Source: Candidatus Peribacteria bacterium (lineage in GTDB: Bacteria > Patescibacteriota > Gracilibacteria > Peribacterales > Peribacteraceae). From it: a DNA stretch of 44,661 nucleotides. The notes under the pieces were generated by a model that ran no database searches, had not been told where the DNA came from, and worked only from the letters and a program-made list of their open reading frames with translations. Below, piece by piece: positions 11,950 to 30,146 of this stretch (its first letter is position 1; each line of letters starts with the position of its first letter). The position numbers and the translations under genes were made by a program. Location: positions 1-44,661 of the forward strand of contig CAINWJ010000159.1 in assembly GCA_903854455.1 (NCBI GenBank), in the 5' to 3' direction.

Positions 11950-12041
11950 AGGTAAGGTATGTAAGATAAGTAAGGTACGTACAGCAGGGAAATTCTTCAG
12001 GCACCTACCTTACCTGCCTTACCTTCTTTACCTGCCTTACC
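11950..12041. repeat. Low-complexity inverted repeat, GGTAAGGTA family (locus A)
   Basis: G-arm 11950-11982 and C-arm 12002-12041. The C-arm is read as the last 15 codons (GKAGKEGKAGKVGA) of ORF 11997..12365. Confidence 0.85.
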
Positions 12042-12365
12042 GTTCTTCAATTCCTTTTTCGTCCCCTGCAATTTCGATAGTAAATCCGCCACCTGTCTCT
12101 CCAGTCCGCGCTGGGCAAGTGTGCGTGAGGGACGGATCAGAAGATAAATCAGAAAACCGATCACCGGAAGAACGGCAACGAGCAGAATGCACAGCGTCTG
12201 GTAGATGAAGGAATTGGTTCTGAGGATGATGTCCCGTGTCGCGAAGAGAACCAGGAAAATGATGATGCAGGCAGCCAGGATCATCGAGAGCTGCATGAAG
12301 AACACGGGCGAATCAGCGGAGAAAATCGTTGAAACGTCCGGGAAAATGGAGAGGAGCTGCGACAC
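11997..12365 (-). CDS. Small membrane protein, PLD-nuclease-N-terminal (PLDc_N)-like
   Basis: It has two hydrophobic helices, and the second ends in LPVIGFLIYLLIRP, which is typical of PLDc_N-type small membrane proteins. The C-terminal 15 residues are encoded by the repeat arm. Confidence 0.55.
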   Translation of the reverse strand: MSQLLSIFPDVSTIFSADSPVFFMQLSMILAACIIIFLVLFATRDIILRTNSFIYQTLCILLVAVLPVIGFLIYLLIRPSRTLAQRGLERQVADLLSKLQGTKKELKNGKAGKEGKAGKVGA

Positions 12366-12384
12366 AGGAACAGGGGGAAATGAA

Positions 12385-13308
12385 CTACAGATGGGGATAT
12401 TTCCATCGATGGACTACAACGTATACGACCGCCGCGACCAAGGCAAGAACCGCCAGCACCTGGCTGAATCTGAGCTGATACTGCGGAAAATCGATCCACG
12501 AACGACTCAGAACGTATGCGATGGTGAGCACGCCAATGGCAGCTCCGTAGATCGCGTTGACACGAGGGGTCAGACGCTCTTCCAATACCGCAAGTCCTCC
12601 CAGGCTTGCGATCAAGCAGGCGAGGAAGAGGAAATCCGGCAGTTTGGCGAAGACCGGAATACCCATATCTCCGCGGAAGAATTCGAAGATGAACACGGCG
12701 ACCGATGCGGCGATAATTCCGACAAGAGTTTCAGCGCCGGCACGCTTGGAATGCCTGCGAATGACGAGCAGTGCAAATGTCAGGACGAGGTAGAACAGCG
12801 CGTAGTAGATCTGTACCGGATGGATGGGCACGGTGTACCGGACATCGTAGGTATTGAGCGTCACACCCCAGAATACATTGGTCGGCTTGCCGTATGCCTG
12901 AGCGGACAGGAACATCCCGAACCAGTCGAACAGAAGACCGAAGGTCGTCGCCGGGAGCAGGACATCCATCCACTGCAAGAACGTCGTGCGCTGATTGCGC
13001 GTCGTGAAGAAGATGACGACACCGATCCCCAGTGCCGCACCGATGAAACTGAACCCACCGTCACGAATATCGACGATGCGGAGAGGATGCGAAACATAGA
13101 GCGGATAGTTGGCGACCACCGCCAGCAGACGCCCTCCGATCAAGAATGCCAACGCATGAACCCAGGCAAAATCCTGCAGACTCTGGAGACTCAAGCCGGC
13201 TGACTTGGACAACCGGAAGAAGAACTCCGCCGACATCAGAAGCGCGATCATCAGGAACACCACGCGCATCCAGATGATCATGGGGCCGATCTCAAAAGCC
13301 TCAAACAT
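12385..13308 (-). CDS. lgt: Prolipoprotein diacylglyceryl transferase
   Basis: It is polytopic with the Lgt-like motifs GGRL, FFRGD and HPVQIYY. At 307 aa it is somewhat longer than typical. Confidence 0.82.
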   Translation of the reverse strand: MFEAFEIGPMIIWMRVVFLMIALLMSAEFFFRLSKSAGLSLQSLQDFAWVHALAFLIGGRLLAVVANYPLYVSHPLRIVDIRDGGFSFIGAALGIGVVIFFTTRNQRTTFLQWMDVLLPATTFGLLFDWFGMFLSAQAYGKPTNVFWGVTLNTYDVRYTVPIHPVQIYYALFYLVLTFALLVIRRHSKRAGAETLVGIIAASVAVFIFEFFRGDMGIPVFAKLPDFLFLACLIASLGGLAVLEERLTPRVNAIYGAAIGVLTIAYVLSRSWIDFPQYQLRFSQVLAVLALVAAVVYVVVHRWKYPHL

Positions 13309-13331
13309 TGATGAGAGAATAGCATGTGAAT

Positions 13332-13423
13332 GGCAGGTAAGGTAGGTAAGGAAAGTAAGGTACGTAAAGCACGTGTTTTCACCTACCTTACATACCTTAC
13401 GTGCAATACCTACCTTACTTTCC
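13332..13423. repeat. Low-complexity inverted repeat, GGTAAGGTA family (locus B)
   Basis: G-arm from 13332 (ggcaggtaaggtaggtaaggaaagtaaggtacgtaaag). C-arm 13380-13423 (cacctaccttacataccttacgtgcaatacctaccttactttcc). Confidence 0.88.
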
Positions 13424-13447
13424 GATTCCGGCTTCCAAATTTGCTAT

Positions 13448-13693
13448 TCAGGAAGGATTGGAAACTTCCCGGCCACGATTCAACGCTTGAAATAATTTTT
13501 TCAATGCGTCTGCACCACCACCAGCTAACGTTCGCTCTATAGGTGTCATTTCCCGATGTTCTGCAGAACCTGAACCAGTCGCATAATCATGACTTTCAAC
13601 TATCACCACACCGTCACCTAAGTCATGCATTACTGGTCCAACCTTGGCAAAAGGCAAACCACTAACATTCGAAGAAACAGAACCATTACTCAT
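13448..13693 (-). CDS. Small hypothetical protein (81 aa) translationally coupled to thrS
   Basis: Its ATG overlaps the thrS TGA in the sequence ATGA (13690-13693). No family was recognised. Confidence 0.45.
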   Translation of the reverse strand: MSNGSVSSNVSGLPFAKVGPVMHDLGDGVVIVESHDYATGSGSAEHREMTPIERTLAGGGADALKKLFQALNRGREVSNPS

Positions 13694-15498
13694 ACACCGA
13701 TAGTACTATGCAACAATCGCTTGTCAATATCTGTGATCACACTATCGATGAATGCATCCCGTGCTACCCCCACCTGCTTCTTCGTCTTCACATTGCGTAC
13801 GGTCACCGTCTTCTCCGCAATTTCACGATCACCGAGCACAACCAAGTAAGGAACCTTCATCATCTCACCGTCGCGGATGCGCTTGCCGAGGGAATCAGAT
13901 GACGGAAGAACCTCGACTCTCACTCCCCTCTTCTTGAGATCTGCTGCAAGCGTGGCAGCGGCTTCCTCATGCGGTGCGGCGACCGGAAGAATATTCACCT
14001 GGACAGGGGCAAGCCACAGCGGGAAGAGCCCTGCAAAGTGCTCGATCAGGAATCCAACGAGACGCTCGTGCGTGGAGAGAGGTGCGCGGTGAATGCACAG
14101 CGGCACCTTCTCAACACCATCCTTATCAATGTACTTGAGTCCGACCTTGCCCGGCACATCGAAGTCGACCTGATTGGTGGCCAGAGTAAATTCCCGTCCG
14201 ATGGCACTCCAGATCTGCACGTCGATTTTGGGACCGTAAAACGCCGCCTCGTCCGGCACCTCCACGTAATTGACGTTCTTCTTCTGCATTGCCTTGCGCA
14301 CCATCTCCTCGGTCTTGACCCACAATTTGGGTTCGTTCACGTACTTCTTCCCCAGTTCCTTGGGATCGTGGAGCGAAAGACGCATGACGTACTTGCCAAT
14401 ATCGAAGATCCGGAAATACTCAATGTACAGATCGATGACCGCGTTGAACTCCTGCTCGAACTGCTCCTCGGTCAAATAGATGTGCGCATCGTTCATGCAG
14501 AGCGAGCGAACCCGCATCAGACCGAAGAGCGCACCGGAATCCTCGTAACGATAACAATGGCCATACTCCGCCAGACGCATGGGGAGATCACGATAACTTC
14601 TGGCACTGCTCGCGAAGATCTGGTGGTGGTGCGGACAGTTCATGGGCTTCAGGTAATACTCCTCCTCTCCATCCAGCTTCATGGGCGGGAACATCGATGT
14701 TTTATAATGTGCCAAATGCCCTGTCTGAGCGTAGAGCTTGCCCTTGGCGATATGCGGTGTGCGGACTCTCAAATACCCACCCTTCTCCTCCATCTCTTTT
14801 CCAAGTGCCTCGATCTGGTCAACGATGATCGTCCCACGCGGCGTCCAGAGCGGCAGACCCGGACCCACCATGTCGGAGAATGCGAAGAGATCCAATTCCT
14901 TGCCGAGCTTCCGGTGATCGCGCTTCTTCGCTTCTTCCACCATTTTCAAGTGCGCATCCAATTCCGCCTTCGACGCAAAGGCTGCGACATAGATTCTGGT
15001 GAGCTGCTCACGTTTCTCATCTCCGCGCCAGTACGCACCGGCGAGAGTGGTCACCTTGAAACAATCAGCCGGAATGTCTTTCGTCGTCTCGACGTGCCCG
15101 CCCCGGCAGAGATCGACGAATGTGTTGTCACCCTTGGGGCCAATGTTCGTGTAATGCGTCACCGTCTTCACCTTCTCGTTCTTCTCCAGATCTTCGATCA
15201 GCTCGACCTTGAACTTCTGCTTCAGTTTGCGCCAGAACTTCTTCGCATCGGCGACCTTGAGCTCGTCGCACCGGAACGTCTGACCCTGGTAGATGATCTT
15301 CTTCATCTCCTTCTCGATCTTCGGCAGATCGCTGTCGGTAATAGGCTCAGCGAAGAGGAAGTCGTAGTAGCAACCGGTATCGATCGGCGGTCCGATGGTC
15401 ACGAGCGTGCCAGGCCAGAGATTGGTCACAGCCTGTGCGAGAACGTGCGCCAGGGAATGGCGGAGATGGTGAAGAGAATCTTCAGAGGTGGTGGGCAT
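13690..15498 (-). CDS. thrS: Threonine--tRNA ligase (no N-terminal TGS domain)
   Basis: The editing-domain motif HSLAHVL sits at residues 14-20, whereas it is near residue 70 in E. coli ThrRS. Class II core and anticodon-binding regions are present. 602 aa. Confidence 0.95.
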   Translation of the reverse strand: MPTTSEDSLHHLRHSLAHVLAQAVTNLWPGTLVTIGPPIDTGCYYDFLFAEPITDSDLPKIEKEMKKIIYQGQTFRCDELKVADAKKFWRKLKQKFKVELIEDLEKNEKVKTVTHYTNIGPKGDNTFVDLCRGGHVETTKDIPADCFKVTTLAGAYWRGDEKREQLTRIYVAAFASKAELDAHLKMVEEAKKRDHRKLGKELDLFAFSDMVGPGLPLWTPRGTIIVDQIEALGKEMEEKGGYLRVRTPHIAKGKLYAQTGHLAHYKTSMFPPMKLDGEEEYYLKPMNCPHHHQIFASSARSYRDLPMRLAEYGHCYRYEDSGALFGLMRVRSLCMNDAHIYLTEEQFEQEFNAVIDLYIEYFRIFDIGKYVMRLSLHDPKELGKKYVNEPKLWVKTEEMVRKAMQKKNVNYVEVPDEAAFYGPKIDVQIWSAIGREFTLATNQVDFDVPGKVGLKYIDKDGVEKVPLCIHRAPLSTHERLVGFLIEHFAGLFPLWLAPVQVNILPVAAPHEEAAATLAADLKKRGVRVEVLPSSDSLGKRIRDGEMMKVPYLVVLGDREIAEKTVTVRNVKTKKQVGVARDAFIDSVITDIDKRLLHSTIGV

Positions 15499-15514
15499 GG
15501 TGAGAGAGTACAGG

Positions 15515-15953
15515 GGAGAATGTAGAATGTAGAATGTAAAATGTAGAATGATGGAATTAATTCTTCTTACTGGACTTGATGATCGCTGTCAGCAACCGGA
15601 TCAATTCATCGACATCCTTGAGTAATGAAGCGGCTTCTTTGAGCGTAAAATAACCTCCGTCGCGCAACAGGGAAATCCAGTAATCTGATTCGTGAGCCTC
15701 ATTCAACGCGATATTCAACTTCGAGATAAATTCCTTCTTGCTTTGCGCGTTCACTCCTTCACGAATATTGGCCCCAATGCCAGTCCCTGAACGCAAGAGC
15801 TGATTACTCAAAACAAATTCGTGTTTTATCTTCGTCAAATATTGATACGCCTTCACAATGCGGTGTGCAAAAGCGTAACTCTTGACCACAACAATATTTT
15901 CTTTGGCTGGTTTTTCCATAACGTTCATTCTACATTCTATATTTTACATTCTC
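15515..15953. repeat. GAATGTA/AAATGTA-family inverted repeat whose arms bracket the four-helix-bundle ORF
   Basis: G-arm 15515-15549 (gagaatgtagaatgtagaatgtaaaatgtagaatg). C-arm 15926-15953 (cattctacattctatattttacattctc). The 376-nt loop is essentially the ORF 15557..15928, and the ORF start codon lies inside the C-arm. Confidence 0.85.
15557..15928 (-). CDS. Four-helix-bundle protein (23S rRNA intervening-sequence protein / Avd-like family)
   Basis: Family-typical core: SNQLLRSGTGIGANIREG...SKKEFISKLNIALNEAHESDYWISLL. 123 aa. Confidence 0.85.
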   Translation of the reverse strand: MNVMEKPAKENIVVVKSYAFAHRIVKAYQYLTKIKHEFVLSNQLLRSGTGIGANIREGVNAQSKKEFISKLNIALNEAHESDYWISLLRDGGYFTLKEAASLLKDVDELIRLLTAIIKSSKKN

Positions 15954-15960
15954 AATTTCG

Positions 15961-17388
15961 TCAGGCGCTAATTCCCACCTCCTTCTCGATCGTCCTTACC
16001 TCACGCAGCAACTGACCGTCCTCCTTCATCTTGGTCTCAATCTTCTCCACCGCATTCATGACCGTCGTGTGATCCCGATTGGAGAAAGTGGCACCCAGGC
16101 GGACATAGCTCATGCGAACGTGCTTCTTGCCGATGTACATGGCGATCTGGCGTGGAATCAGGATTTCCCGGACGCGCGATTCGCCGAGCATATCCGGAAC
16201 GGAAACGGAGAAATACTTGCTCACCGTCTCCAGTACATCCTGGAACGCGATGGCTTTCTCCGGCTCCTTCTCGAAACCGACATCCTCCTGCTTCCCATCC
16301 ATGGAATCGCAGAGCTTGTTCATGATCTCGGTCATGGATGAGACGGTCGGTACACACTGCTCCAGCTCATACTGGGCAACCGCCTGCATGAGAATTCCCT
16401 CCAGCTGGCGGATGCTCTTCGTGGCGTGCTCGGCAACGTAGCGAAGCACCTTCTCATCCAAGAGCAAACCGTACTCCTGCGCCTTTTCCGCAAGAATGGC
16501 ATAGCGAGTTTCATAATCAGGCATGGTGACATCCGCAACCATCCCACGCTCGAAGCGTGACACCAGACGATCCTGCATGATGGTCAACTCTTTCGGCGGA
16601 CGGTCGGAACTGATGATGATCTGCTTCCGTTCCTCAGTCAGCGTATTGAACGTATGGAACAATTCTTCCTGTGTTCGCTCTTTGTTCGCCAAGAACTGGA
16701 TGTCATCGATGATCAGCACATCAACTTCACGGTAGCGGCGACGGAACTGCTCCATCTTGCTGTGCTGGATGGCCTCAATGACCTGATTCGTGAAGTCCTC
16801 AGATGTTGTGTAGAGCACCACGGCATGCGGCATCGTGCGCAGGATGGCATTACCGGTTGCCTGCAGAAGGTGCGTCTTGCCGAGACCGACGCCACCGTAG
16901 ATGAAGAGTGGATTGTACTTGCCGCCGGGATCGCCTGCGACGGCTGAGCACGCTGCATGAGCCAACCGATTGACCGGACCCACGACGTAGTTCTCAAGCG
17001 AGTAGCGGGGATTTAAGAGCTTGCTCGTGAGACCTTCTGCGATCCGAACCTCAGCTCTTCCCGGCAACTTCCGGCGCTTCTTGTCGGGGAAATGTTCGAG
17101 GAGACGGAGTGTGCGGGTCGTATCGTCCTTGAGTCCCCCATCGACCTGATACACCACCTGATCGATCGTCGGATCGACCTCCTTGAGCGCGGCAATTGTC
17201 ATCGTCCGGTAGTGCTCCAGATGCCAGTTTAGGAACATCGGGAGCGGCAATCCAATCACCACGTTATTGCCCTCACGACCCAGAATCGTCGTGTCCTTAA
17301 ACCACGTGATGAACTGCCCGCGAGCCATCTGCGGCTCGATGAGAGTCAGTACTTTCAGCCAGAGATCGAGGTCGGGGGCGGGGGTCAC
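15961..17388 (-). CDS. dnaA: Chromosomal replication initiator protein DnaA
   Basis: Walker A GGVGLGKTHLL, Walker B LIIDDIQFL and the C-terminal DNA-binding region with NRDHTTV are present. The track gives a GTG start, so the exact start is uncertain. Confidence 0.95.
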   Translation of the reverse strand: MTPAPDLDLWLKVLTLIEPQMARGQFITWFKDTTILGREGNNVVIGLPLPMFLNWHLEHYRTMTIAALKEVDPTIDQVVYQVDGGLKDDTTRTLRLLEHFPDKKRRKLPGRAEVRIAEGLTSKLLNPRYSLENYVVGPVNRLAHAACSAVAGDPGGKYNPLFIYGGVGLGKTHLLQATGNAILRTMPHAVVLYTTSEDFTNQVIEAIQHSKMEQFRRRYREVDVLIIDDIQFLANKERTQEELFHTFNTLTEERKQIIISSDRPPKELTIMQDRLVSRFERGMVADVTMPDYETRYAILAEKAQEYGLLLDEKVLRYVAEHATKSIRQLEGILMQAVAQYELEQCVPTVSSMTEIMNKLCDSMDGKQEDVGFEKEPEKAIAFQDVLETVSKYFSVSVPDMLGESRVREILIPRQIAMYIGKKHVRMSYVRLGATFSNRDHTTVMNAVEKIETKMKEDGQLLREVRTIEKEVGISA

Positions 17389-17394
17389 GAGACG

Positions 17395-17568
17395 AGGTAA
17401 GGTAAGTAATGTAGGTAAAGGTAGGTAAGGTAGGTGAGATGTAAAAAGAATTATCGAGGATTGATGCTGCTAAGAGAGTGAAAGAAAGACAATAACCGAG
17501 AACTTTGATTGAAGGATTGTGAATGCACGTACCTTACTTACCTTACGTGCCTTACCTACCTTACCTAG
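17395..17568. repeat. Low-complexity inverted repeat, GGTAAGGTA family (locus C)
   Basis: G-arm 17395-17444 and C-arm 17526-17568, with a loop of about 81 nt. The rseP stop (17565-17567) lies in the C-arm, and the dnaA start is 7 nt from the G-arm. Confidence 0.88.
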
Positions 17569-18856: not shown

Positions 18857-18933
18857 GGGCAATTAGCTCAGCTGGTTAGAGCGCCACATTGACATTGTGG
18901 AGGTCACTGGTTCGAGTCCAGTATTGCCCACCA
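18857..18933 (+). tRNA. tRNA-Val (anticodon GAC), CCA encoded
   Basis: Hand fold: GGGCAAT/ATTGCCC acceptor, GCTC/GAGC D-arm, CCACA-TTGACAT-TGTGG anticodon arm and ACTGG-TTCGAGT-CCAGT T-arm, followed by A and CCA. Confidence 0.93.
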
Positions 18934-19023: not shown

Positions 19024-22000
19024 CTATCTGCTGCCACCAAGGGTACTGATCCTCGCATCGATCCTCCGGAGCAAACGGTCACGTATGTTTCCGAGAATCA
19101 TTCGTGCCCCAGGAAACTGAGTCAATGCAAGTCGTTGATCGATGCGCTTGAGCAAACGCATGCGCATGAATTGAAGGAGCTGGAGAGCGGAAGAGGAGGA
19201 ATCATGAGTATCGGAGGCAGCATGAAGCACAGATGATGACGAGGAAGAAGATGCCATCGTTTGTTGTGCCGCTACCTCCATGCGACGTGCCAGTGTCTGA
19301 GAACGAGCACCTCCTGACGTCACGACGGTTGCCTGGGATGAAGCAGCGGACACTGAAGAGGAGGAGGATGACGAAGAGGAAGATGATGATGACGAAGAAG
19401 AGTCTGACGATGCTTGAGTGAAGACGCTGATCCTGTTACCGGAAGCATCTGAAACGAAAAGGCGACTTGAAGCCCCATCGTAAGTAACACCGGTGGGGTT
19501 ACTCATGCCATTCTGCGTGCCACCCCCCGCCGTACTCCGGGTGAAGTTCGGCTGTCCGAGAACGCTCAGAGCATTTTGTCCGTCAGTGATAGTGGCGATG
19601 TTCTGAATCGTGATTCTGTTATTCAAATATTCTACGATGAAGAGACGGCTCCCTGTCGGATCGTACGAGAGCCCGTAGGGATAGGAGACGCCGTTCTGCG
19701 TCGTAGCCGTCGCACTGGTATAGAAAACCGGCTGACCGAGCACGTTGTCCGGAATGCGATCGACAAACGTGCCGTTTGCATTGAGTGCATAGACGAGGAC
19801 GCGGTGATTGCCGAACTCGGAAACGAAGAGCCTGTGTCCGATAGTATCCACGGCCAGGGCGTAAGGAGATGACAACCCGAACTTGTTTGGCGCATTGCTC
19901 GACGATACTTTATTGAAGACCATGACCGGTGCCGCGATACTGTCATCCAGTTGCCCGAGACCATCGATAGCATTCTGACCGTCGGTCACGGTACTCACAT
20001 TCTGAACGATCATGCGATTATTCCCCGCATCAGAAATGAATAGGCGGTTCGATATCGGATCAAAAAGAACGCCATAGGGAGTCCTGAGGGTGTTCTGGGT
20101 GGTCCCGTAAGCACTCGCAGTGAAATTCGATTGTCCGAGGACATTCACGGCATTCTGACCGTTGACAATCGCTGCGACACTGAATGCCAGAACACGGTTA
20201 TTCTGAGTATCACTGACGAAGAGGCGACTGCCTGTCGGATCGTACGTGACGCCGAAAGGCGTATTCATGCCGTTCTGAGTCGCAGCGGAAGTGCTGCGGG
20301 AAAAGTTCGGTTGACCAAGGACGTTCGCCGCGTTTTGCCCGTCAGAAATGGACGCCACTGCCTGCACGATGACACGATTGTTGAGGTAATCCGCAATGAA
20401 GAGACGACTGTTTGTTGCATCGTAGTCGAGGCAGTAGGGATAATTCATACCGTTCTGCGTCGTGACACCCGCACTCCTCGCATAGTTCGGTTGACCTAAA
20501 ACATTCGCAGCATTCTGCCCGTCCGTGATGGAAGCAACATTCTGAACTAGCACGCGGCTATTACCGTAGTCAGCGATGAAGAGGCGGTTGCCGGCAGCAT
20601 CAAAGACCAAGCCATATGGATTGGAAATCCCGTTCTGGGTTGTGGCGGATGCACTCGATACGTAGTTCGGCTGACCCAGAATGTTCGCCGCGTTCTGCCC
20701 ATCGGTGATCGTACTGATGCTCTGAACGAGGATGCGCTTGTTGGTGTAATCGGCGATGAAGAGACGGCTGCCCGCCGGATCGTAGGCGAGACCAGTGGGA
20801 TACCCCATCCCGTTCTGCGTTACCGCAGTCACGTTGGTATAGAACACCGATTGTCCGAGGACGTTATCAGGGATGCGATCGACGAACGTGCCGTCGGCAT
20901 TCAGAGCAAACACGAGGACACGGTAGTTGTAGTAATCGGCGACGAAAAACCGATGACCCGTTGAATCCAGAGCAACGGCGCGACTGCCGCTGAGACCAAG
21001 CCTGTTCGGCAGATTCTGGACCGTTCCTTTCGTGAAAACCGGCGACGGGGCGCTGATGTTGTCATCGTATTGACCCAGAGCATCGACGGCATTCTGACCA
21101 TTAGAGATCACACTCACATCGTGGACGGAAACGCGATGATTGCCGTACTCGGCGACGAAGAGGCGACTATTCGTTGCGTCGTAGGCGATGCCGTAGGGGT
21201 TTTTGAGCCCGTTCTGCGTCGTAGCGGATGCAACAGACGAGAAGTTCGGTTGCCCGAGGACGTTCGCAGCATTCTGCCCGTCCGTGATGGAAGCAACGTT
21301 CTGCACAGTAACGCGTTGATTGCTACCCTCGGAGATGAAGAGTCGACTGTTCGTCGGATCGTACGCAAGCCCGACAGGACGATTCATGCCATTCTGCGTT
21401 GCTGCCGAGGCACCCGTCGAAAACACTGATTGCCCGAGGACGTTGTCAGGGATGCGATCGACGAAGGTGCCGTCTGCATTCAGGGCATACACGAGGACGC
21501 GGCTGTTCATGTAGTCCGCGACGAAGAGACGATGGCCCGCAGTATCGATGGCAGTGGAATAGGGCGAATACAGACCGAACTTGTTCGGATTGTTGTGCGC
21601 CGCGCCCTTGATGTAGACAGGCTGGGGCGCAATCACACTGTCGTCATACTGACCAAGTACATCCGCCGCATTCTGACCGTCGGTGATGGAAGCGACACTC
21701 TGGACAGAAACCCTGTTGTTATCTTTCTCTGAAATGAAGAGGCGGCTTGTTGCAGGTGAGTATGCAAGACCATACGGACCCTTCATACCATTCTGTGTCG
21801 TAGCGAAAGTAGCTGACGCATAGTTCGGTTGTCCCAGAACATTCGTCGCGTTCTGTCCGTCAGTGATGGAGGCGACAGTAAAAACCGTGACACGATGATT
21901 GCTGTTTTCAGCAACGAAGAGACGGCTTGTTGCCGAGTCGTAGGCGAGAAACATGGGAGTAGCCATGCCGTTCTGCGTAGTGACGTTGGTGATCTTTGTA

Positions 22001-22884
22001 TAGTTCGGTTGCCCGAGAACATTGGCGGCGTTCTGTCCGTCGGTGATCGTACTAACGCTATAGACGATGACGCGGTTATTGGTTGAGTCGGCGACGAAGA
22101 GGCGGCTGTTCGTTGAATCGTAGGCGAGACTGAAGGGATTCCTGAGCCCGTTCTGCGTCCCGGCAGATGTGCCGATCGAATAGTTCGGTTGACCCAGGAC
22201 ATTGGCGGCATTCTGTCCGTCGGTAATCGAACTGACGTTCTGAACGATGATGCGGTTATTGGTGTATTCAGAAATGAAGAGACGACTATTCGTTTCGTCG
22301 TAGACGATGCCAAAAGGAGTCTTGAGTCCGTTCTGTGTCGTGACGGCAGCATTGGAGGAATAGTTCGGCTGACCGAGGACATTCGTCGCGTTCTGTCCGT
22401 CGGTAATCGTACTGACGTTATAGACGATGACACGAATGTTGCCGTAGTCGACGACGAAGAGACGGCTGCCCGTCGAATCGTATGCGAGACTCATCGGAGA
22501 ACTCATCCCGTTCTGCGTTAATGCGGCTGTCGAGACGGAATAGGAACCTTGTCCAAGAACGTTATCCGGTATGCGATCAACGAACGTGTCGTCCGCGTTC
22601 AGCGCATAGACAAGGACACGGTTATTGGAATAATCAGCCAAGAACAGACGGTGTGCCACGGTATCGAGTGCCATCCCCTCTGGAGAATTCAGACCGAATC
22701 TATTGGGTCCGTTGCCCGCTCCGTTCTTGGAGAATACCGGTGACGGTACTGAGACATTGTCATTGTACTGACCGAGGACATCGACAGCGTTCTGACCATC
22801 CGTGAACGCCGCATGAACTTCGCCATGTACAAAAAATACTGCTCCAATGAACAGAATATTGAGGATGTATTGTTGCCAACGCAT
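19024..22884 (-). CDS. Secreted NHL-repeat beta-propeller protein (about 18 blades) with poly-Ser linker and helical C-terminal tail
   Basis: Signal peptide MRWQQYILNILFIGAVFFVHGEVHA. There are about 18 units of about 60 aa (NSRLF[VI]AD..NNRV.V..V.SITDGQNA.NVLGQPN...T.QNG...P.GLAYD). The DNA shows a 180-nt periodicity, for example at 22013, 22193 and 22373. An S-rich tract of 21 Ser in 22 residues (SSDSSS...) precedes the tail. Confidence 0.9.
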   Translation of the reverse strand: MRWQQYILNILFIGAVFFVHGEVHAAFTDGQNAVDVLGQYNDNVSVPSPVFSKNGAGNGPNRFGLNSPEGMALDTVAHRLFLADYSNNRVLVYALNADDTFVDRIPDNVLGQGSYSVSTAALTQNGMSSPMSLAYDSTGSRLFVVDYGNIRVIVYNVSTITDGQNATNVLGQPNYSSNAAVTTQNGLKTPFGIVYDETNSRLFISEYTNNRIIVQNVSSITDGQNAANVLGQPNYSIGTSAGTQNGLRNPFSLAYDSTNSRLFVADSTNNRVIVYSVSTITDGQNAANVLGQPNYTKITNVTTQNGMATPMFLAYDSATSRLFVAENSNHRVTVFTVASITDGQNATNVLGQPNYASATFATTQNGMKGPYGLAYSPATSRLFISEKDNNRVSVQSVASITDGQNAADVLGQYDDSVIAPQPVYIKGAAHNNPNKFGLYSPYSTAIDTAGHRLFVADYMNSRVLVYALNADGTFVDRIPDNVLGQSVFSTGASAATQNGMNRPVGLAYDPTNSRLFISEGSNQRVTVQNVASITDGQNAANVLGQPNFSSVASATTQNGLKNPYGIAYDATNSRLFVAEYGNHRVSVHDVSVISNGQNAVDALGQYDDNISAPSPVFTKGTVQNLPNRLGLSGSRAVALDSTGHRFFVADYYNYRVLVFALNADGTFVDRIPDNVLGQSVFYTNVTAVTQNGMGYPTGLAYDPAGSRLFIADYTNKRILVQSISTITDGQNAANILGQPNYVSSASATTQNGISNPYGLVFDAAGNRLFIADYGNSRVLVQNVASITDGQNAANVLGQPNYARSAGVTTQNGMNYPYCLDYDATNSRLFIADYLNNRVIVQAVASISDGQNAANVLGQPNFSRSTSAATQNGMNTPFGVTYDPTGSRLFVSDTQNNRVLAFSVAAIVNGQNAVNVLGQSNFTASAYGTTQNTLRTPYGVLFDPISNRLFISDAGNNRMIVQNVSTVTDGQNAIDGLGQLDDSIAAPVMVFNKVSSSNAPNKFGLSSPYALAVDTIGHRLFVSEFGNHRVLVYALNANGTFVDRIPDNVLGQPVFYTSATATTQNGVSYPYGLSYDPTGSRLFIVEYLNNRITIQNIATITDGQNALSVLGQPNFTRSTAGGGTQNGMSNPTGVTYDGASSRLFVSDASGNRISVFTQASSDSSSSSSSSSSSSSSSSVSAASSQATVVTSGGARSQTLARRMEVAAQQTMASSSSSSSVLHAASDTHDSSSSALQLLQFMRMRLLKRIDQRLALTQFPGARMILGNIRDRLLRRIDARISTLGGSR

Positions 22885-23013
22885 TGAAAGTGGTGGAAGC
22901 GTTGGAAATCATAGTATCTACTCTTCATCTAATTACATAGACGATCTGACTGAGCGGTTACTGACAAACTTCTTCAATAATGGACAGACAACAATTTCGC
23001 TACAATCCTGCTT

Positions 23014-23681: not shown

Positions 23682-23790
23682 GGGGGGTAAGGTAGGTAAA
23701 GAAAGTAAGGTATGTAAGGTTGGTTTTTGGCTTTTATATGAGCTTTTCACCTACATTACGTACCTTACCTACAATACTTACATTACCTAG
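23682..23790. repeat. Low-complexity inverted repeat, GGTAAGGTA family (locus D)
   Basis: G-arm 23682-23723 and C-arm 23748-23790. It begins 3 nt after the comF stop. The G-arm is 31/34 identical to the G-arm of locus B. Confidence 0.88.
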
Positions 23791-24341: not shown

Positions 24342-24349
24342 CAAGAAAC

Positions 24350-27300
24350 ATGATCAAGACAAACATTCATTGTCGGCTCACAGTCACCGAGCACTCGCTC
24401 CGGGAGCACAGAATGCTACGGGACGTGCCGGACCGCCGGCTGAGTGCCGATGGATATTTGCCACCGAATGATGACATGCCATCCGCTGACCAGCAGGATC
24501 AGGAAACAAGCGAACACCGATTCGAGCGATGGAAACTCGGCGGAGCAGAAGCAACGGGCACAGGTATCAGTGACATCATGAAGAGAACTCACGAGAACGT
24601 TGTCGTGATTGACCCACAGCTGGAGCTGGGAGCACTGCGCGAAAGCGATATATTGTGGGATCTGGTCTCGGTAGACGGAATCATGGACAGAGAGATGGGA
24701 GAACTACTCAAGAGTAAAGCTTCATCGGTCAACCTCACCATGAATGAGAAAGAAACCAATCTGCAGGAATTGATGTCAGCGAAACCCAAGAACGTGGGAA
24801 GCATCCTCTGGGTGATCAGAAACAATATCGAATCGGCAGAGGAGCTCAGTCAAATGCTCGAGAAACGGCTGAAGGTGCTAGGAATGCATGATCCGGCAAT
24901 GCTCCAGAAAAAATTGGAGGAACTGCGGGATACGAGTACATCCGAAGAGAAATTCGGTGTGCTTACGGAAGCAGGGATAACGAAACAAGATGTGCAACGC
25001 ATCGCAGAAAAGATTTCTGGACAGAAAGACGCTGCCAAAGAGTTAACAGATCGCACCCTGGATGCCGTGATCAATTTTCTCTGGAATACGGTTATCATCA
25101 GAAAGCGTCAAAGTCTCTTCGCAGAGCGAACGGGGAAAGAAAATCCATATACCTCGGATGCTCGCGCTGACTACATCCGGACGCTGAAGCAGCAAGAAGA
25201 GTGTGTAGAGAAATACCTGAAGGCGATGCTGCAGTCGAAGATCAAGCTCATCGGCGACCGGTTGAAGCTCTACTACACGCAAATCGGGAGGAAGGGTGCC
25301 GGGATGGATGTGAAAGATTTTGATCGTGCGTACGGACTGGAAGACCGGATGCGCGATATCGAAGGTCTGCAGGCGAAGATCGAAGCAGCAGCCGGACTGC
25401 AGCGCGGTAGAGCAGGCGGCAAGAAACCTATCGATTTCGAAAGCCTCATGACATCACTCGGAACACTGGAAACGCTGGAACGGGAAGTGGGATCGTTGCC
25501 AAGTGCGGGGAAAACAGAACTCGGCTCAGATGCAGAAGATGTGAACTTCAAGAACAATGTCGAGCAAAGTGTGGAGGAAGGAAACCGGAACGAAGACATG
25601 GCGGTCGAGATAGCCAAGTCACTCAAGCATGTCCGTGAGACGAATACCGATCCCGCTGCAACAGCGGAATTGGACAGAATGTGGGAGCGGTACCAGCCAT
25701 ACGCCGCAGGTCTGGATAGCATTGAAAGACAATTTACGTCTCAGGCTGACTGCACTGTGCATCGCATGTCGATGCGGCAGATGCCGTACCATCACATTCA
25801 ACGGGATCTCATCACGGTCTCTACCCTCACACTCGAACCAACGTACTTCTCCGACGGTTTGGCCAAACAGGAAGCAGCACGAAAGAATCATCCGAATACG
25901 AAGCAAGGACGTGAAGAGCTTAGGCAACTCCTCGGCACTTCGATTACGGGAATCCAGAAGCAGACACAGGGAGACATCGCCCGTGTCCTCTCCATCGGTC
26001 CCAATCTGGCCAAGCAAAACGAAGTACTGGAGGCTCAACTCCGCGACGCAGAGAAGCATCCGGATATCACTAAACGCGAACAGATGTTCCTCGCAGCCGC
26101 GACGGAAATCCGGGAGCTAGCGGCAGCAAATCGACTCCTGGGTGAGACTTGGGTGGTGGAAATAGATAAACCAACTGTGTTTGAAAAAATCACGCAATTG
26201 CAGCCGGGAATTGCGATGAATACATACGGATACTATGTGCTCGGCACCGGCAAGATCTATCTCAACATGAGCAGCGTCCGCCGGGATAAAGTGAACAAAC
26301 AACGAGTCATCGAGCATGAGCGCAATCACGCATTCATCGATGTGATGTGCAGACGAACCAAAGCGCTGCCGGGTCTGCTGGTGCATACGCGCATGGCTCT
26401 GGACAACGCCGCCAGTGAACAGGGAACGACCGCAGAAGAATTGCTGAAGACATTCGCGAAAGAATGCAAAATCGACATGACACATCCCGGCTGGAGAGAA
26501 CTCACGATGGATGAAGCAGCCGTCGTCTGTGCGGATTATCTGGGAGGCAAGAAGAAAACACTGACCGATGCGCAGAAGAATGTCCTCAGGACACTGGGTT
26601 TGGAGAAGAGTGCTGACGACGGAATTCCAGACCACGACTCTCTGCGACAAACAACACCGAAAGAGCAGAGGGCCAAGTCTGGTAAACAGAAAATCGGACA
26701 ACGCATGGCAGCAGATGATATTCAAGAAGGATACGAACCAGAGAGCGGTGCAGTTGAGACGAAATCAACAGAAGCGGAAGGTGAATACCCGTTCCTCAAA
26801 AATCTGGATGAGGTGAAATGGAAACTCGACCGCATCGATGACTTCATGAAAGTGTATCCGCAGAATCTCCAAGCCGATGCCGGAGAAGGGCAAAACTATG
26901 AGCAGTACATCAATGAAATCAAGAAAAGGCTCAAAGTCACGGAAAACCTCTTCACACAAAAAAACGTGGCAGATGATCGTCAAGAAAAAATACTCCAGCA
27001 GATGATTGAAGACCTTGATTTCGACACGGGAGATATCATGAAAGCCATCAAAGAATTTGATTCGAAGAGAATGGATATGACGCACGTTGCACCCAGTACA
27101 AAAAGAACACTATTCCAGAAAGCATCCGAGCGCATCGTCTGGTGCTCACTCTCCGACATCTGGGGAATGATCAAGGATGCTGGTGAAGACATCAACCGCA
27201 TGTGGAAGCGCCGTAGCGAGGATGCACGTGCCAAACTGGGACGAGCCGTCACCGCCACGTTCATCCCGGAGAAAATTCCGTACTTCGGACGTCTGCAGTA

Positions 27301-28894
27301 TGACTTCCGCGGACGCGAGAAGCACTCGGAAGAGGAGGAAGTAGGCGTATGGGAGAAGCGCTTCGGGCATATCGATAATCACGCCCTTCAGCACATGCTT
27401 GTGGGACAGACCGACAAAGACAAGGTGAAAGCCATCATCAACCTCCTCACCAAGCGCGGACGCATGGACTTTGAGGACGATCAGCTCTGGTACACACTTG
27501 AGCGATTGTCGAAATATGGCATGCCGCATGACGCTTGCCATCGGGACAACATTCTCCGTAACGCCTACCTGCAGAAACTCATCGCCCAAATCTGGGATGA
27601 CAAAGACCAATTCGAGCACTGGAAGACAGCGAACGACAGCGCTATCAAAAAAGGTAAAGACTCGTTTGCAGCTACAGTAGATGATCTATCGAGCCTTCCG
27701 AAGGGTCAGGCAAGCGCGCTAGCACGCCTGCTGGAAGCATGGGATAAACAAAAGGATCATGGAGCGAAAGTATCTCCGGAAGAAGAGGTAAATCCGCATC
27801 TCTTCGAAGAGCACATTCACTACGCGATGAGAAACGGAAAAATGGGAATGGAAGACAAATTCTTCTACCTCATACAAGGCGTTGCACGCGGTTTACTTAA
27901 CGTCGATCGCCTGCGCTCATTCAATGGACAGGAGGGAAAAATTTTGAATGCCTTTCCGTTTATCGACTTCTTCGATAAGAAAAATAATACCCTAGATGAG
28001 ATCAGAACTATCGCCGAGAGTATTACGAACAAGAAGGCACCATACACACCGGACTACAGAACAACGTACCTTCTGTACGAAGAGGTAAGGAGAAACAAAG
28101 CCGTCCGTGATCGTGCGGCAAAAGGCATCAAGAACTCACAAAACGTCGATCATGAAGACCTGCCAATGCTTATCAGTTTGCTGGATTACGGTAACATCAA
28201 CCAAGCAACAGGCATTGCCGGAGGACAGCTGTGGAGAGTCTCCGCTCCTGCAATGAAGAATATCTATGTGGGATACAATTCGCTATTCCAGTATTATGCT
28301 ATACGCGCCAGAATGATCCTAGAAGGCGTTTCGGGTGTAAAACCATTGACGATGGAGGATATCACAGCGATCACAACTGCTCTGGTTGCGTTCATTCACT
28401 ATGACAACCTAATAACAAGAGCAGCAGATACGGGATCTCGTCCATATTTGACATGGAATGAAATCAATAACGATCCACCTGTTTCGGGTACCCTGCTCAC
28501 AAAGAACTACCGCGACAAAGCGACAGGATTCGCAAAAGAAATTGTAAAAGACAAATTGGGAATCGCTGAGATAACTACAAAAGAAGGAAATGTTACCATA
28601 GATGATGCAATCGGTGTCGGTCGGGACGCAGCTACAGTGGATGAATTAGGTGCTACTAAGAAAAAAGTTCTGATGAGTCAGGCTTGCCAGGAAGATTTGA
28701 CGAAGAACATCAAGAAAAATCTGACAAAGGCTTTCAAAGAAAACCCACAACAAATCCTGAAATGGCTTGCAAAATTTACAGAAGACCCAAGTAAAACACT
28801 CCATCCCGAAGAAGAGGAATTTACATACAGTAACATTAAATCAATCGTACCAACGTGGAGACAAGCGGTTCCACAAACACACGCAATCCACTAG
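24350..28894 (+). CDS. Giant orphan soluble protein (1514 aa) with a single HExxH motif
   Basis: The ORF is uninterrupted over 4.5 kb and starts 9 nt after the preceding stop. It has no signal peptide or TM helices and is highly charged. The motif context is GTGKIYLNMSSVRRDKVNKQRVIEHERNHAFIDV. The start could instead be the internal Met at 24410. Confidence 0.8.
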   Translation: MIKTNIHCRLTVTEHSLREHRMLRDVPDRRLSADGYLPPNDDMPSADQQDQETSEHRFERWKLGGAEATGTGISDIMKRTHENVVVIDPQLELGALRESDILWDLVSVDGIMDREMGELLKSKASSVNLTMNEKETNLQELMSAKPKNVGSILWVIRNNIESAEELSQMLEKRLKVLGMHDPAMLQKKLEELRDTSTSEEKFGVLTEAGITKQDVQRIAEKISGQKDAAKELTDRTLDAVINFLWNTVIIRKRQSLFAERTGKENPYTSDARADYIRTLKQQEECVEKYLKAMLQSKIKLIGDRLKLYYTQIGRKGAGMDVKDFDRAYGLEDRMRDIEGLQAKIEAAAGLQRGRAGGKKPIDFESLMTSLGTLETLEREVGSLPSAGKTELGSDAEDVNFKNNVEQSVEEGNRNEDMAVEIAKSLKHVRETNTDPAATAELDRMWERYQPYAAGLDSIERQFTSQADCTVHRMSMRQMPYHHIQRDLITVSTLTLEPTYFSDGLAKQEAARKNHPNTKQGREELRQLLGTSITGIQKQTQGDIARVLSIGPNLAKQNEVLEAQLRDAEKHPDITKREQMFLAAATEIRELAAANRLLGETWVVEIDKPTVFEKITQLQPGIAMNTYGYYVLGTGKIYLNMSSVRRDKVNKQRVIEHERNHAFIDVMCRRTKALPGLLVHTRMALDNAASEQGTTAEELLKTFAKECKIDMTHPGWRELTMDEAAVVCADYLGGKKKTLTDAQKNVLRTLGLEKSADDGIPDHDSLRQTTPKEQRAKSGKQKIGQRMAADDIQEGYEPESGAVETKSTEAEGEYPFLKNLDEVKWKLDRIDDFMKVYPQNLQADAGEGQNYEQYINEIKKRLKVTENLFTQKNVADDRQEKILQQMIEDLDFDTGDIMKAIKEFDSKRMDMTHVAPSTKRTLFQKASERIVWCSLSDIWGMIKDAGEDINRMWKRRSEDARAKLGRAVTATFIPEKIPYFGRLQYDFRGREKHSEEEEVGVWEKRFGHIDNHALQHMLVGQTDKDKVKAIINLLTKRGRMDFEDDQLWYTLERLSKYGMPHDACHRDNILRNAYLQKLIAQIWDDKDQFEHWKTANDSAIKKGKDSFAATVDDLSSLPKGQASALARLLEAWDKQKDHGAKVSPEEEVNPHLFEEHIHYAMRNGKMGMEDKFFYLIQGVARGLLNVDRLRSFNGQEGKILNAFPFIDFFDKKNNTLDEIRTIAESITNKKAPYTPDYRTTYLLYEEVRRNKAVRDRAAKGIKNSQNVDHEDLPMLISLLDYGNINQATGIAGGQLWRVSAPAMKNIYVGYNSLFQYYAIRARMILEGVSGVKPLTMEDITAITTALVAFIHYDNLITRAADTGSRPYLTWNEINNDPPVSGTLLTKNYRDKATGFAKEIVKDKLGIAEITTKEGNVTIDDAIGVGRDAATVDELGATKKKVLMSQACQEDLTKNIKKNLTKAFKENPQQILKWLAKFTEDPSKTLHPEEEEFTYSNIKSIVPTWRQAVPQTHAIH

Positions 28895-28905
28895 AATGAC
28901 TGAGC

Positions 28906-30039
28906 ATGATTGCTCAGTCACGCCGCATCATCGTCAAAGTCGGCACCAACGTACTTACCACACCGGAGGGTTTATTGAATGCTGACATGATGGCATCACT
29001 GGTTCAGCAAATCGTAACCCTGCAGCAGAAGGGAACTGAAATCATTCTCGTCTCCTCGGGAGCCATGGCAGCGGGGAGAGCTGTCGTGAGAGCCCACAAT
29101 CGTCGGCGATCCACATCTCGCTTGTCGCCCTTCGACTACGCTCAGGGTGACAAGCAGCGTAATGACGTCACCAACCGGCAAATCCTCGCCGCCGTCGGGC
29201 AGGTGCACCTCATGAAACGGTACGCTGAATTATTCGGCACTCACAATGCCATTTGCGCTCAAGTTCTTGCGACAAAGGAGGATTTTCGCGACCGGCGACA
29301 TTACCTGAATATGCGCGGCTGCTTCGCATCTCTATTGGAAGAAGGCATCGTTCCGGTGGTAAATGAGAATGATGTGGTGGCAGTCGATGAGCTGATGTTC
29401 ACGGACAATGACGAACTCGCGGGGTTGATCGCTGCAATGGTCGACGCCGATGCGCTCCTGATCCTCTCCAGTGTACCGGGAATACTGACCTGCGATCCCA
29501 AGGATCCAGATTCGACTGTCATCAAAGAAGTCCGCAGTGACGCGGATTGGAAAAAATACTTACGCGCCGGAACATCATCCTTCGGTCGCGGCGGCATGCA
29601 CACCAAGTGCGAGAGTGCCAGGAAACTCGCGTCACTAGGCATTACGACGCACATCGCACTCGGAACTTTGCCCGATGTGCTCCTGAAGATCGAAAGCGGG
29701 AAGAGTCCTGGAACCGTCTTCATTCCGGAGAAATCGACCTCCAGCATCAAGCGATGGGTAGCAGAGAGCGAAGGTCAGGAGAAAGGGATCATCGTAATCA
29801 ACAAGTGCGCTGTAGAAGCCATCACGGCACCGGGGCGCGCACGGAGTCTGCTTCCGGTCGGCATCGTGAAAATCAAGGGAGACTTCGAGAAAAATGATTT
29901 ACTAAGAATCAGAAGTGAAGAAGGAAAAGACATCGGAATTGGACGAGCGCAATATGCATCGACTCCGGCGAAGGAGGCAATGGGGAAGCAGGGGCAGAGG
30001 GCGTTGATACATTACGATTACCTCTATTTGAATACGTGA
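28906..30039 (+). CDS. proB: Glutamate 5-kinase with PUA domain
   Basis: RIIVKVGTNVLT, VSSGAMAAGR, ILAAVGQ, VNENDVV and a C-terminal PUA-like region are present. An insertion of about 18 aa relative to E. coli ProB lies between AAGR and ILAAVGQ. Confidence 0.95.
   Translation: MIAQSRRIIVKVGTNVLTTPEGLLNADMMASLVQQIVTLQQKGTEIILVSSGAMAAGRAVVRAHNRRRSTSRLSPFDYAQGDKQRNDVTNRQILAAVGQVHLMKRYAELFGTHNAICAQVLATKEDFRDRRHYLNMRGCFASLLEEGIVPVVNENDVVAVDELMFTDNDELAGLIAAMVDADALLILSSVPGILTCDPKDPDSTVIKEVRSDADWKKYLRAGTSSFGRGGMHTKCESARKLASLGITTHIALGTLPDVLLKIESGKSPGTVFIPEKSTSSIKRWVAESEGQEKGIIVINKCAVEAITAPGRARSLLPVGIVKIKGDFEKNDLLRIRSEEGKDIGIGRAQYASTPAKEAMGKQGQRALIHYDYLYLNT
29120..29155. repeat. 11-bp-stem palindrome inside the proB coding sequence
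   Basis: gcttgtcgccc (29120-29130) pairs with gggtgacaagc (29145-29155), including one G.T. The loop is 14 nt (ttcgactacgctca). The region encodes SRLSPFDYAQGDKQ in frame. Confidence 0.8.
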
Positions 30040-30046
30040 TACGAAA

Positions 30047-30146
30047 AGTAAGGTAGGTATTGTAGGTAAGGTAAGTAAAGTAGGTGATCAATCAGCCCAC
30101 ATACCTTACGTACATTACCTACCTTACGTACCTTACATACCTTACC
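30047..30146. repeat. Low-complexity inverted repeat, GGTAAGGTA family (locus E)
   Basis: G-arm 30047-30087 and C-arm 30098-30146. It lies between the proB stop and the proC start. The 44-nt stretch 30044-30087, which contains the G-arm, is 39/44 identical to the reverse complement of the locus B C-arm. Confidence 0.88.

Follow-up and report, generated by a model that had tools for sequence, protein, structure and literature searches.

The closest known kind to the elements described in this work is the cyanobacterial STRR, followed by intergenic heptamer arrays and by REP/BIME sequences. STRR sequences, such as the intergenic hairpin between hupS and hupL in Nostoc/Anabaena, are 7-bp repeats located between cyanobacterial genes; their function is unproven, and transcript stabilization or translational coupling has been proposed (PMC2670836). 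The TAACTGA heptamer direct repeats of Beggiatoaceae, cyanobacteria and Bacteroidetes occur as 2-6 tandem units, mostly intergenic and near start codons, at positions where close relatives have shorter, repeat-free spacers, and a post-transcriptional role has been proposed for them (PMC4679880). Here we analyzed a stretch of 44,661 nucleotides from a Candidatus Peribacteria bacterium (contig CAINWJ010000159.1, hereafter the window), in which five loci, A to E, carry inverted arrays of the degenerate 9-nt unit GGTAAGGTA. Our findings suggest, with a probability of about one half, that these five loci are part of a wider class of tandem-unit hairpins in intergenic DNA, which extends across the Peribacteraceae, resembles STRR, lies between cistrons and evolves in concert by array turnover. 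About 20 units, with periods of 6-9 nt, make up the class, and GGTAAGGTA is a widespread one. Literature searches found no earlier description of such hairpins in Peribacteria, Patescibacteria or the candidate phyla radiation (CPR), and the 2016 Peribacteria genome paper mentions short repeats at or near the origin as its only repeats; the tandem-unit hairpin class is apparently undescribed.

The ftsZ gene of the window is 84-87% identical to that of the metagenome-assembled genome (MAG) STB_185, and its DnaA is 64-78% identical to those of about 35 syntenic metagenome loci; on these identities, we assign the window to a Peribacteraceae (CPR) genome. A Pfam scan of about 38 open reading frames (ORFs) in the window returned, for each, either a housekeeping gene or no Pfam match. 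The genes include infB, eno, lgt, thrS, dnaA, rseP, comF, proBCA, dut, ftsZ and ftsA, together with a 5'-3' exonuclease and a P-type ATPase.

The five loci are real, all are intergenic, and they lie where the first-pass annotation of this DNA had placed them. With at most one mismatch, GGTAAGGTA has 31 matches in the window, compared with 2.3 expected from dinucleotide-preserving shuffles. Read in its G-rich orientation from the stem base toward the loop, each arm is composed of four copies of NGTAnnGTA (9 nt) and a partial fifth unit, usually NGTG; units 1 and 3 are close to the consensus, and units 2 and 4 are more variable. The elements have a total length of 90-180 nt with two 36-nt arms of four tandem units, and their loops show no relatedness between copies.

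The same architecture recurs beyond the window. A scan with the pattern GTAAGGTANGTAAGGTANGT, applied to one genome per GTDB species under a detection rule that allows at most one mismatch over six fixed unit positions, returned 96 loci of the GTAAGGTA family. These loci are concentrated in at least 13 species-level MAGs of Candidatus Peribacteria/Peribacteraceae, and additional ones were found in two Peregrinibacteria MAGs and one marine Patescibacteria MAG. Exactly four units are present in 51 of the 79 GTAAGGTA arrays from Peribacteria, and the hairpins are almost all of the 4+4 type; this sharp mode, rather than the decaying length distribution of a free microsatellite, indicates a real family whose architecture is fixed. 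Within the unit, the pattern G2 T3 A4...G7 (T8) A9 is near-invariant and positions 1, 5 and 6 are free, although this invariance is partly built in by the detection rule. The scan also matched motif clusters in Microcoleus and Calothrix that are arranged in inverted array pairs. The GTAAGGTA-like clusters of Microcoleus (L096 3052-3409, L101 2912-3158, L108 1578-1824) have the C-rich array first and span 250-350 nt, and the marine Patescibacteria MAG (JAHIYH01, a subset of L062-L153) has about 10 loci that are mostly one-stranded tandem motif arrays.

The GTAAGGTA elements share the window with hairpins built from other units, namely AGAATGT (two loci), ATAGGCGT, AGGGTC/GGGTCA (several), GGTCAGC, TGGTTTGG, GAGGAAATA and a few more (Table 1). 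Tandem arrays were identified by Tandem Repeats Finder (TRF) together with an inverted-repeat scan; TRF detected arrays of period 6-9, with about four copies, in most window spacers, and the inverted array pairs have a predicted dG of about -35 to -60 kcal/mol. Nearly all co-directional or convergent spacers of at least 75 nt hold a hairpin, and two of the three divergent spacers hold none. A census of 0.5 Mb of DnaA-anchored loci, chosen without regard to unit, yielded 24 clean inverted array pairs representing about 20 unit families, with about four units per arm for periods of 7, 8 and 9. Relatives at about 40% DnaA identity have only three inverted array pairs in 0.25 Mb. The census also revealed a consistent polarity, with more G than C in the 5' arm in 20 of 23 cases (P=0.0005).

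The position of the hairpins relative to genes is equally regular. They begin at a median of 14 nt past the upstream stop codon, and the pyrimidine-rich 3' arm often reaches the next start codon, with several starts located 3-30 nt from the end of this arm. The resulting layout runs from the stop codon through a G/purine-rich array, a loop and a complementary pyrimidine-rich array to the start codon. Because many hairpins leave no room for a promoter before the next start codon, we place them between cistrons. No Shine-Dalgarno signal was detected upstream of about 30 window starts, and the 30 nt before these starts are pyrimidine-rich and G-poor. Shine-Dalgarno mimicry by the arms (GGTAAGGTAGGTGA resembling TAAGGAGGTGA) was considered and dropped, given a genome that lacks this signal at these starts.

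Table 1. Tandem-unit hairpins of the window, with their units, arms and neighboring genes (positions in the window; + and -, strands).
Hairpin	Position	Unit	Arms and loop	Setting
Element A	11951-12041	GTAAGGTA family	5' arm 11951-11986 = GGTAAGGTA TGTAAGATA AGTAAGGTA CGTACAGCA; loop 19 nt; 3' arm 12006-12041	flanked by PLDc_N ORF (11997-12365, -) and 134-aa gene (11516-11920, -)
Element B	13332-13423	GTAAGGTA family	arms 13336-13371 and 13384-13419 (4+4 units); loop 12 nt; inverted repeat reaches 13332/13423	between thrS/81-aa ORF and lgt start (13308); all on - strand
Element C	17393-17568	GTAAGGTA family	5' arm 17396-17432 (one unit of 10 nt); loop ~95 nt; 3' arm 17530-17565	rseP-like stop codon (17565-17567) touches one arm; dnaA start (17388) 6 nt off the other arm
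Element D	23686-23787	GTAAGGTA family	arms 23686-23721 and 23752-23787; loop 30 nt	begins 6 nt past comF-like stop codon (23679), upstream of 157-aa ORF (23868, +)
Element E	30046-30146	GTAAGGTA family	5' arm 30047-30082 (4 units); loop 19 nt; 3' arm 30102-30146 (5 units)	begins 7 nt past proB stop codon (30039); proC start 30186 or 30195
GGTCAGC-type	3327-3397			convergent spacer, infB 3' end
AGGGTC / GACCCT	5713-5796	period 6		between infB and DHH-family gene; touches upstream stop codon
AGAATGT	10474-10572		(AGAATGT)n...(CATTCTA)n	between 272-aa gene and enolase; sense-orientation 3' arm ends 3 nt short of enolase start
ATAGGCGT / CGCTTACA	11435-11510	period 8		between 134-aa and 272-aa genes
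AGAATGT, inverted arrays	15517-15958		15517-15550 and 15926-15958, enclosing PF05635 ORF	between dnaA and thrS
TGGTTTGG / TAAACCAG	32318-32412	period 8		fills convergent spacer, proA stop 32317 to dut stop 32423
GGGTCA-type	32868-32984			between ftsZ stop codon (32983) and true dut start (~32840)
GAGGAAATA / TCCTCTATT	38180-38307	period 9		between 80-aa ORF and Sel1-repeat gene

Two gene calls overlap these hairpins. The longest dut ORF (32423-32956, -) over-extends across the GGGTCA hairpin, and both the alignment with STB_185 and a Pfam match that begins at residue 48 indicate the later start given in Table 1. The PLDc_N ORF runs through the 3' arm of element A in the sole frame free of stops; the 9-nt repeats of the element encode its C-terminus, ...GKAGKEGKAGKVGA, and its stop codon lies inside the loop. 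The spacer between lgt and the 134-aa gene is at least 324 nt in all relatives, a length consistent with a conserved small gene at this place.

Turnover at orthologous sites is fast. At the rseP-dnaA junction, where the window carries GTAAGGTA, the relatives have CCGAGGAAA, CATTGTTT, ACATGGTT, GAATGGTT, GCCCTTGT, CCATTTG or GGTCAGT-type hairpins; eight different units occur across relatives, and about 15 relatives have a spacer of at most 5 nt. Other orthologous junctions likewise contain different units or minimal spacers. The ftsZ-dut junction, for instance, is found in three states, with no hairpin (L162/L164), with GGGTCA (the window) or with GTAAGGTA (STB_185, L133), and homology of its flanks ends at the stop codon and restarts some 5 nt short of the start codon. 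The same holds for orthologous junctions in general, where homology breaks off at the stop codon and restarts a few nucleotides before the start codon, and up to about 25 nt before it at thrS-lgt. Similarly, the 3' end of infB has a GGTAAGGA/GGTAAGGTA hairpin in MAG RIFCSPHIGHO2_02_FULL_51_15 (L145) and GGTCAGC in the window, and the site of locus E in STB_185 has no GTAAGGTA element.

Closer relatives reveal how the units change. In the sister genomes L160 (with L193) and L202, whose genes are 93-97% identical, junctions hold either unrelated hairpins delimited by the ends of the genes or hairpins that can still be aligned and have had their unit altered in concert. At the rseP-dnaA junction, L193, L202 and L216 carry ACATGG/CCATGT, TCATTG/CAATGA and GAATGG/CCATTC, respectively. 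Double compensatory changes affect 6 of the 32 predicted pairs, and from one repeat to the next they fall on the same unit position. The arms thus evolve in concert, with one substitution present in every unit of an arm and its complement in every unit of the other arm. We read this three-genome series as textbook compensation that keeps the stem.

Unit families also recur at several, often neighboring, spacers of the same genome: AACAATTT flanks thrS on either side in L161, GGGACCGAA does so in L202, and GTAAGGTA occupies five sites in the window. Some arrays are perfect, including (AGTAAGGTA)x4, (AGTAAGGTA)x11 and (AGGAAGGTA)x7, which is consistent with recent unit amplification. Within the GTAAGGTA family, a loop-side NGTG ending is present in 7 of 9 window arms compared with 18 of 67 elsewhere (P=0.005), and a base other than T at unit position 8 is absent from two genomes (0/71 and 0/24) and present in three others (17/42, 9/37 and 8/38; chi-square P=6e-8). 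These genome-specific signatures therefore call for some within-genome homogenizing or copying process. Arm identity is 28.9 of 36 within genomes versus 28.5 between genomes (P=0.02), and this marginal excess would represent homogenization around a shared consensus, not a recent copy burst.

The most closely related sequences are the near-identical metagenome contigs L157 and L001, which were found by exact-protein look-up of comF and proB; look-ups with lgt and rseP gave no match. These contigs differ from the window at four positions in about 7.4 kb (30088; 23713, 23721; 22086). Three of the four differences fall within hairpins E (30088) and D (23713, 23721), a number too small to inform. 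The two in hairpin D turn unit 4 into the consensus GGTAAGGTA; at 13-21 nt from where the contig ends, they may be artefacts of assembly, and contig L001 stops inside the loop of element D.

The first-pass annotation had interpreted the likeness between arms as evidence for paralogous modules recombined between loci, on the basis of hand alignments. The underlying identities can be recovered after coordinate corrections of 1 nt. The value of 31/34 is obtained for 13336-13369 against 23686-23719, after a shift of 1 nt from the 13335-13368 first given, which yields 12/34; that of 39/44 is obtained for the reverse complement of 13380-13423 against 30043-30086, and falls to 13/44 at 30044-30087. 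The identity of 28/30 between the reverse complement of 23748-23790 and locus E was reproduced, and the shared sequence ttttcacctac has exactly two occurrences, at 13376 and 23744. However, these identities are ordinary against repeat-aware nulls. The best of the 45 arm pairs in the window matches at 32 of 36 positions over the 36-nt cores, a value reached in 93-99% of simulations based on unit shuffles, weight-matrix (PWM) sampling or odd/even-slot shuffles. When 4-nt flanks are added to the arms, the best pair within the window reaches 39/44, and window arms match those of other species at up to 38/44 (5 of 344 pairs). The identities are therefore no higher than repeat-aware nulls or the cross-species level, an outcome that the annotation itself had named as one that would count against it; it had also named a lack of further copies, and these are in fact many, in at least 13 Peribacteria species.

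The arms are alike across loci because all of them are four-unit arrays of one degenerate 9-mer, not because modules have been exchanged. Consequently, when a single unit builds the two arms of every element, a given module will automatically be seen as a 5' arm in one place and as a 3' arm in another. Recombined modules also gain no support from the arm-type (polarity) test, an eigen-analysis of same-versus-flipped arm similarity across 19 elements, in which no significant sorting of the arms into two or more types was seen (P=0.34-0.42). The annotation was right that the arms are more than low-complexity drift, inasmuch as they form a genuine family with a fixed architecture, but the modular interpretation is not supported, since the likeness comes from the common unit. 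More generally, hand-aligned identities between tandem-repeat arms do not show module exchange. An apparent pairing of pure arms with variant arms (r=-0.58) is partly an artefact of the scan-pattern ascertainment and was given no weight.

Mobilization of the MITE/REP type, which the annotation had also proposed, would require non-autonomous palindromes that are copied or moved from one intergenic site to another by a transposase whose gene lies elsewhere (for example RAYT/IS200-like Y1), and we consider it unlikely. Such movement would explain why a unit family occupies several, often neighboring, spacers in one genome and not the orthologous sites of relatives, why families have genome-specific signatures and why elements come and go at gene junctions. 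A 28-kb contig classified as viral (IMGVR_UViG_3300047481_001293, 37-40% GC) also contains three near-identical (GGTAAGGTA)x4 hairpins of about 125 nt in both orientations (L004 3430-3571, L045 5660-5795, L049 6441-6574), with a conserved loop of about 50 nt; these are genuine copy-paste repeats, and they belong to another organism. The best direct repeats flanking A-E measure 2-4 nt against a null median of 3 nt, which places target-site duplications at chance level. The five elements include no near-identical copies, their best identities being those at the null and cross-species level reported above, and the loops of the copies are unrelated. As the annotation had stated, no dedicated transposase is visible: the ORFs scanned against Pfam contain no transposase, integrase or HUH domain, and no RAYT (Y1/HUH, PF01797-type) domain, in a search confined to the window. 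No clean filled and empty sites were seen at the orthologous junctions of relatives, where the difference takes in the entire spacer between the two codons. Furthermore, a single architecture over about 20 unrelated units would require about 20 element families, and the hairpins of L193, L202 and L216 have been altered in situ and in concert.

In the reading that we favor, a class of STRR-like hairpins evolving by array turnover, the arms would act as small satellite arrays in which units are gained, lost and homogenized by replication slippage or flap-type duplication. The two arms may now and then be re-templated on each other through quasi-palindrome template switching, or be compensated under selection on the stem, and, because long palindromes are unstable, the stem would not grow much beyond 30-40 bp. 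The product would be a long stem-loop that punctuates polycistronic transcripts, potentially as an RNase III-type processing site or as a barrier to 3' decay, by analogy with STRR. Our best guess for the function of the hairpins is such a processing or stability element in RNA, and a role in DNA structure is a further candidate; they are neither canonical terminators nor transposons.

One of the window hairpins bears on this function. The loop of the AGAATGT arrays between dnaA and thrS is exactly filled by a 123-aa ORF (15557-15928, -) that matches PF05635, "23S rRNA intervening-sequence protein" / Avd-like, a family of four-helix bundles (E=8e-27). This gene has no counterpart in the approximately 35 syntenic relatives. 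A homologue in Ca. Peribacter UBA2144 (L085 7579-7950), 53% identical, is framed by (AATTGAC)x4...GTCAATT, and heptamer-type arrays lie immediately downstream of the homologues in L089, L141 and L134. Intervening sequences (IVS) of 23S rRNA are excised via RNase III cuts in their terminal stem. A processing or stability function would also fit the placing of a PF05635 IVS-protein gene in a hairpin loop, as seen in the window and in L085.

Several results weigh against the favored reading. Across 19 GTAAGGTA hairpins, 81.6% of cells in the in-register stem are paired, which is lower than the 83.3 +/- 0.8 obtained with shuffled partners (497 of 500 shuffles were at least as high). Covariation in these hairpins is likewise below that of the shuffles, and both pairing and covariation stay below them in every register examined, among them offsets of one or two units. 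Permutation tests indicate that the arms of an element are slightly less alike than unrelated arms; this unlikeness persists in elements outside the scan-pattern ascertainment (window only, P=0.035), and it is small and inflated by ascertainment. Pairs form between the conserved GTA blocks, and at the variable positions about half of the elements are mismatched, so that pairing at the latter appears not to be maintained in the GTAAGGTA family, unlike in the rseP-dnaA series. At the RNA level, folding the sense strand gives no greater stability than folding the antisense strand (21 vs 32, P=0.34), and TTTT is found within 10 nt past the hairpin in only 4 of 53 cases. With no strand asymmetry, U-tract or focal-family covariation, DNA-level or non-adaptive readings may apply. 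The positional bias is also weak: long hairpins occur in 44% of convergent, 34% of co-directional and 24% of divergent spacers, a trend in the anticipated direction, but with crude ORF-based gene calls their depletion from the divergent class does not reach significance (24% vs 36%, P=0.24). Finally, slippage in situ does not by itself explain why one 9-mer is kept in at least 13 species when most other units appear confined to one genome or a few related ones.

Another explanation is that the hairpins are a non-functional by-product, in which slippage-prone or repair-poor replication in these reduced genomes makes and erases inverted arrays in the only places that tolerate them, the short non-coding spacers. 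Extreme turnover, together with the many relatives whose spacers of at most 5 nt show the hairpin to be dispensable at the same junctions, agrees with this explanation, as do the lack of sense-strand and U-tract signals, the absence of covariation in the GTAAGGTA family and the location within hairpins of three of the four differences between near-identical strains. We nevertheless regard it as improbable, in view of the sharp mode of four units per arm, which holds for periods 7-9 and in different species, the purine-first polarity in 20 of 23 hairpins, the compensatory concerted change that preserves the rseP-dnaA stem and the long-term retention of one unit family across species. Such regularities suggest constraint, although mechanistic bias and limits on palindrome length could mimic some of them.

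A different kind of constraint would apply if the arms were arrays of binding sites, with a conserved factor (a protein, or the ribosome/RNA) reading the periodic GTA..GTA in DNA or RNA and with the inversion reflecting a dimeric or bidirectional binder. The persistence of the GTAAGGTA unit in at least 13 species with near-invariant GTA positions is compatible with this possibility, although the estimate of conservation is partly circular given the detection rule. Similarly, between-genome arm identity almost equals that within genomes, arm length is fixed at four units, and the variable-position pairing is not kept, as would be anticipated if the motif rather than the stem were constrained. 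However, about 20 unrelated units occupy equivalent sites and replace GTAAGGTA at orthologous junctions, for which no single sequence-specific factor suffices, and no candidate binding protein was identified; we therefore view this explanation as rather unlikely.

We hold it quite unlikely that a unit-independent active process, for instance a dedicated enzyme or a retro-/template-switch mechanism possibly linked to the PF05635 Avd-like genes that lie within such hairpins, writes and rewrites (unit)x4-loop-(complement)x4 hairpins at gene boundaries. If such a process exists, the hairpins would be programmed, fast-diversifying operon punctuation rather than passive satellites. Least probable of all, and in our view very unlikely, is a hairpin-framed gene cassette, in which the PF05635 gene inside inverted arrays is the autonomous unit and ORF-less hairpins are remnants or non-autonomous relatives: its exact fit in the AGAATGT loop, its absence from the syntenic relatives and the arrays at the L085 homologue and three others speak for it, but the window has one such gene against about 15 ORF-less hairpins, PF05635 proteins have no known mobilizing activity, the framing units differ from case to case, and the gene may merely have landed, or be tolerated, in an existing hairpin loop.

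Other features of the window were recorded alongside the hairpins. Rfam 15 at gathering score identifies two tRNAs only in the window, and the hairpins match no known RNA family. The first tRNA gene (18857-18930, +) lies within a 358-nt spacer that follows a 1286-aa NHL-repeat gene and precedes the rseP-like gene (both -); the second (7297-7369, -) is overlapped by a longest-ORF call at 7139-7354 that is probably spurious. The 1286-aa gene (19024-22884, -) contains a 180-nt tandem repeat, with about 3.4 copies at 21914-22543, which encodes NHL / beta-propeller repeats. The minimum of the cumulative GC skew adjoins dnaA (~16000-17000), and gene orientation flips at 22885-23013; together, skew and orientation suggest that a replication origin lies within or close to the window. 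Considering dnaA and the 9-nt period of the unit, origin-of-replication repeats were weighed and rejected for the GTAAGGTA family, which is dispersed on many contigs elsewhere and whose unit is, by inspection, unlike a DnaA box.

If the class of concerted hairpins proposed here is confirmed, Peribacteria, and perhaps other CPR bacteria, would put much of their scarce non-coding DNA into one stereotyped structure whose change outpaces the divergence of the flanking genes. The hairpins would then offer a compact natural model of concerted evolution, in which one base-pair change spreads through eight units and the parts played by slippage and hairpin-templated repair could be studied. For an uncultivated groundwater lineage without a Shine-Dalgarno signal or apparent canonical terminators, they suggest a route of transcript punctuation or stabilization. 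From a practical point of view, the hairpins would account for contig breaks in metagenome assemblies and could serve as hypervariable markers for strain tracking.

Compared with described repeats, membership in REP/RAYT, MITE and intrinsic terminators fails on the features tested. Rho-independent terminators are similar in that a stem-loop, G-rich in its 5' arm and C-rich in its 3' arm, lies a few nucleotides past the stop codon. Their stems, however, measure about 5-14 bp, whereas those of Peribacteria are at least 20 bp and typically 28-40 bp, are imperfect and lack a U-tract, and many touch the next start codon, leaving a promoter no room. MITEs such as Correia/NEMIS, RUP, BOX and ERIC are likewise small, non-coding, hairpin-capable intergenic repeats that are sometimes co-transcribed, but they have terminal inverted repeats derived from insertion sequences, target-site duplications and near-identical dispersed copies, none of which was found for the window elements. 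Eukaryotic foldback (FB) transposons have inverted arms built of short tandem subrepeats, are of kilobase scale and carry a transposase in some copies; the Peribacteria hairpins, in contrast, show no evidence of transposition.

The REP/BIME and REPIN-RAYT systems share with the Peribacteria hairpins abundant extragenic imperfect palindromes at gene 3' ends or between cistrons, genome-specific families, and proposed roles at both the RNA level (mRNA 3' protection) and the DNA level. A REP, however, is a single palindrome of 20-40 nt with a 5' GT[AG]G, many near-identical copies and a linked RAYT gene, whereas the Peribacteria arms are tandem arrays of about 20 unit families with no RAYT seen in the window; GTAG is present at every unit junction of these arms, not as the unique terminal motif that characterizes REP. 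The TAACTGA repeats consist of a single heptamer in one orientation, with one inverted case reported, and differ from the inverted pairs and many unit families of Peribacteria.

The likeness to STRR extends to short tandem intergenic units, typically of 7 bp, to a hairpin between co-transcribed genes and to several unit families per genome. STRR are, however, defined in filamentous/heterocystous cyanobacteria, and the window and its relatives are Peribacteraceae/CPR; the hairpins are thus not STRR by descent or by taxon. They also differ in having units of 6-9 nt (9 being the commonest in the focal family), in a strict two-arm design (about 4+4 units) that opens with the G-rich arm, and in filling most intercistronic spacers of the window genome. 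To our knowledge, neither concerted compensatory evolution nor replacement of one family by another at the same site has been described for STRR.

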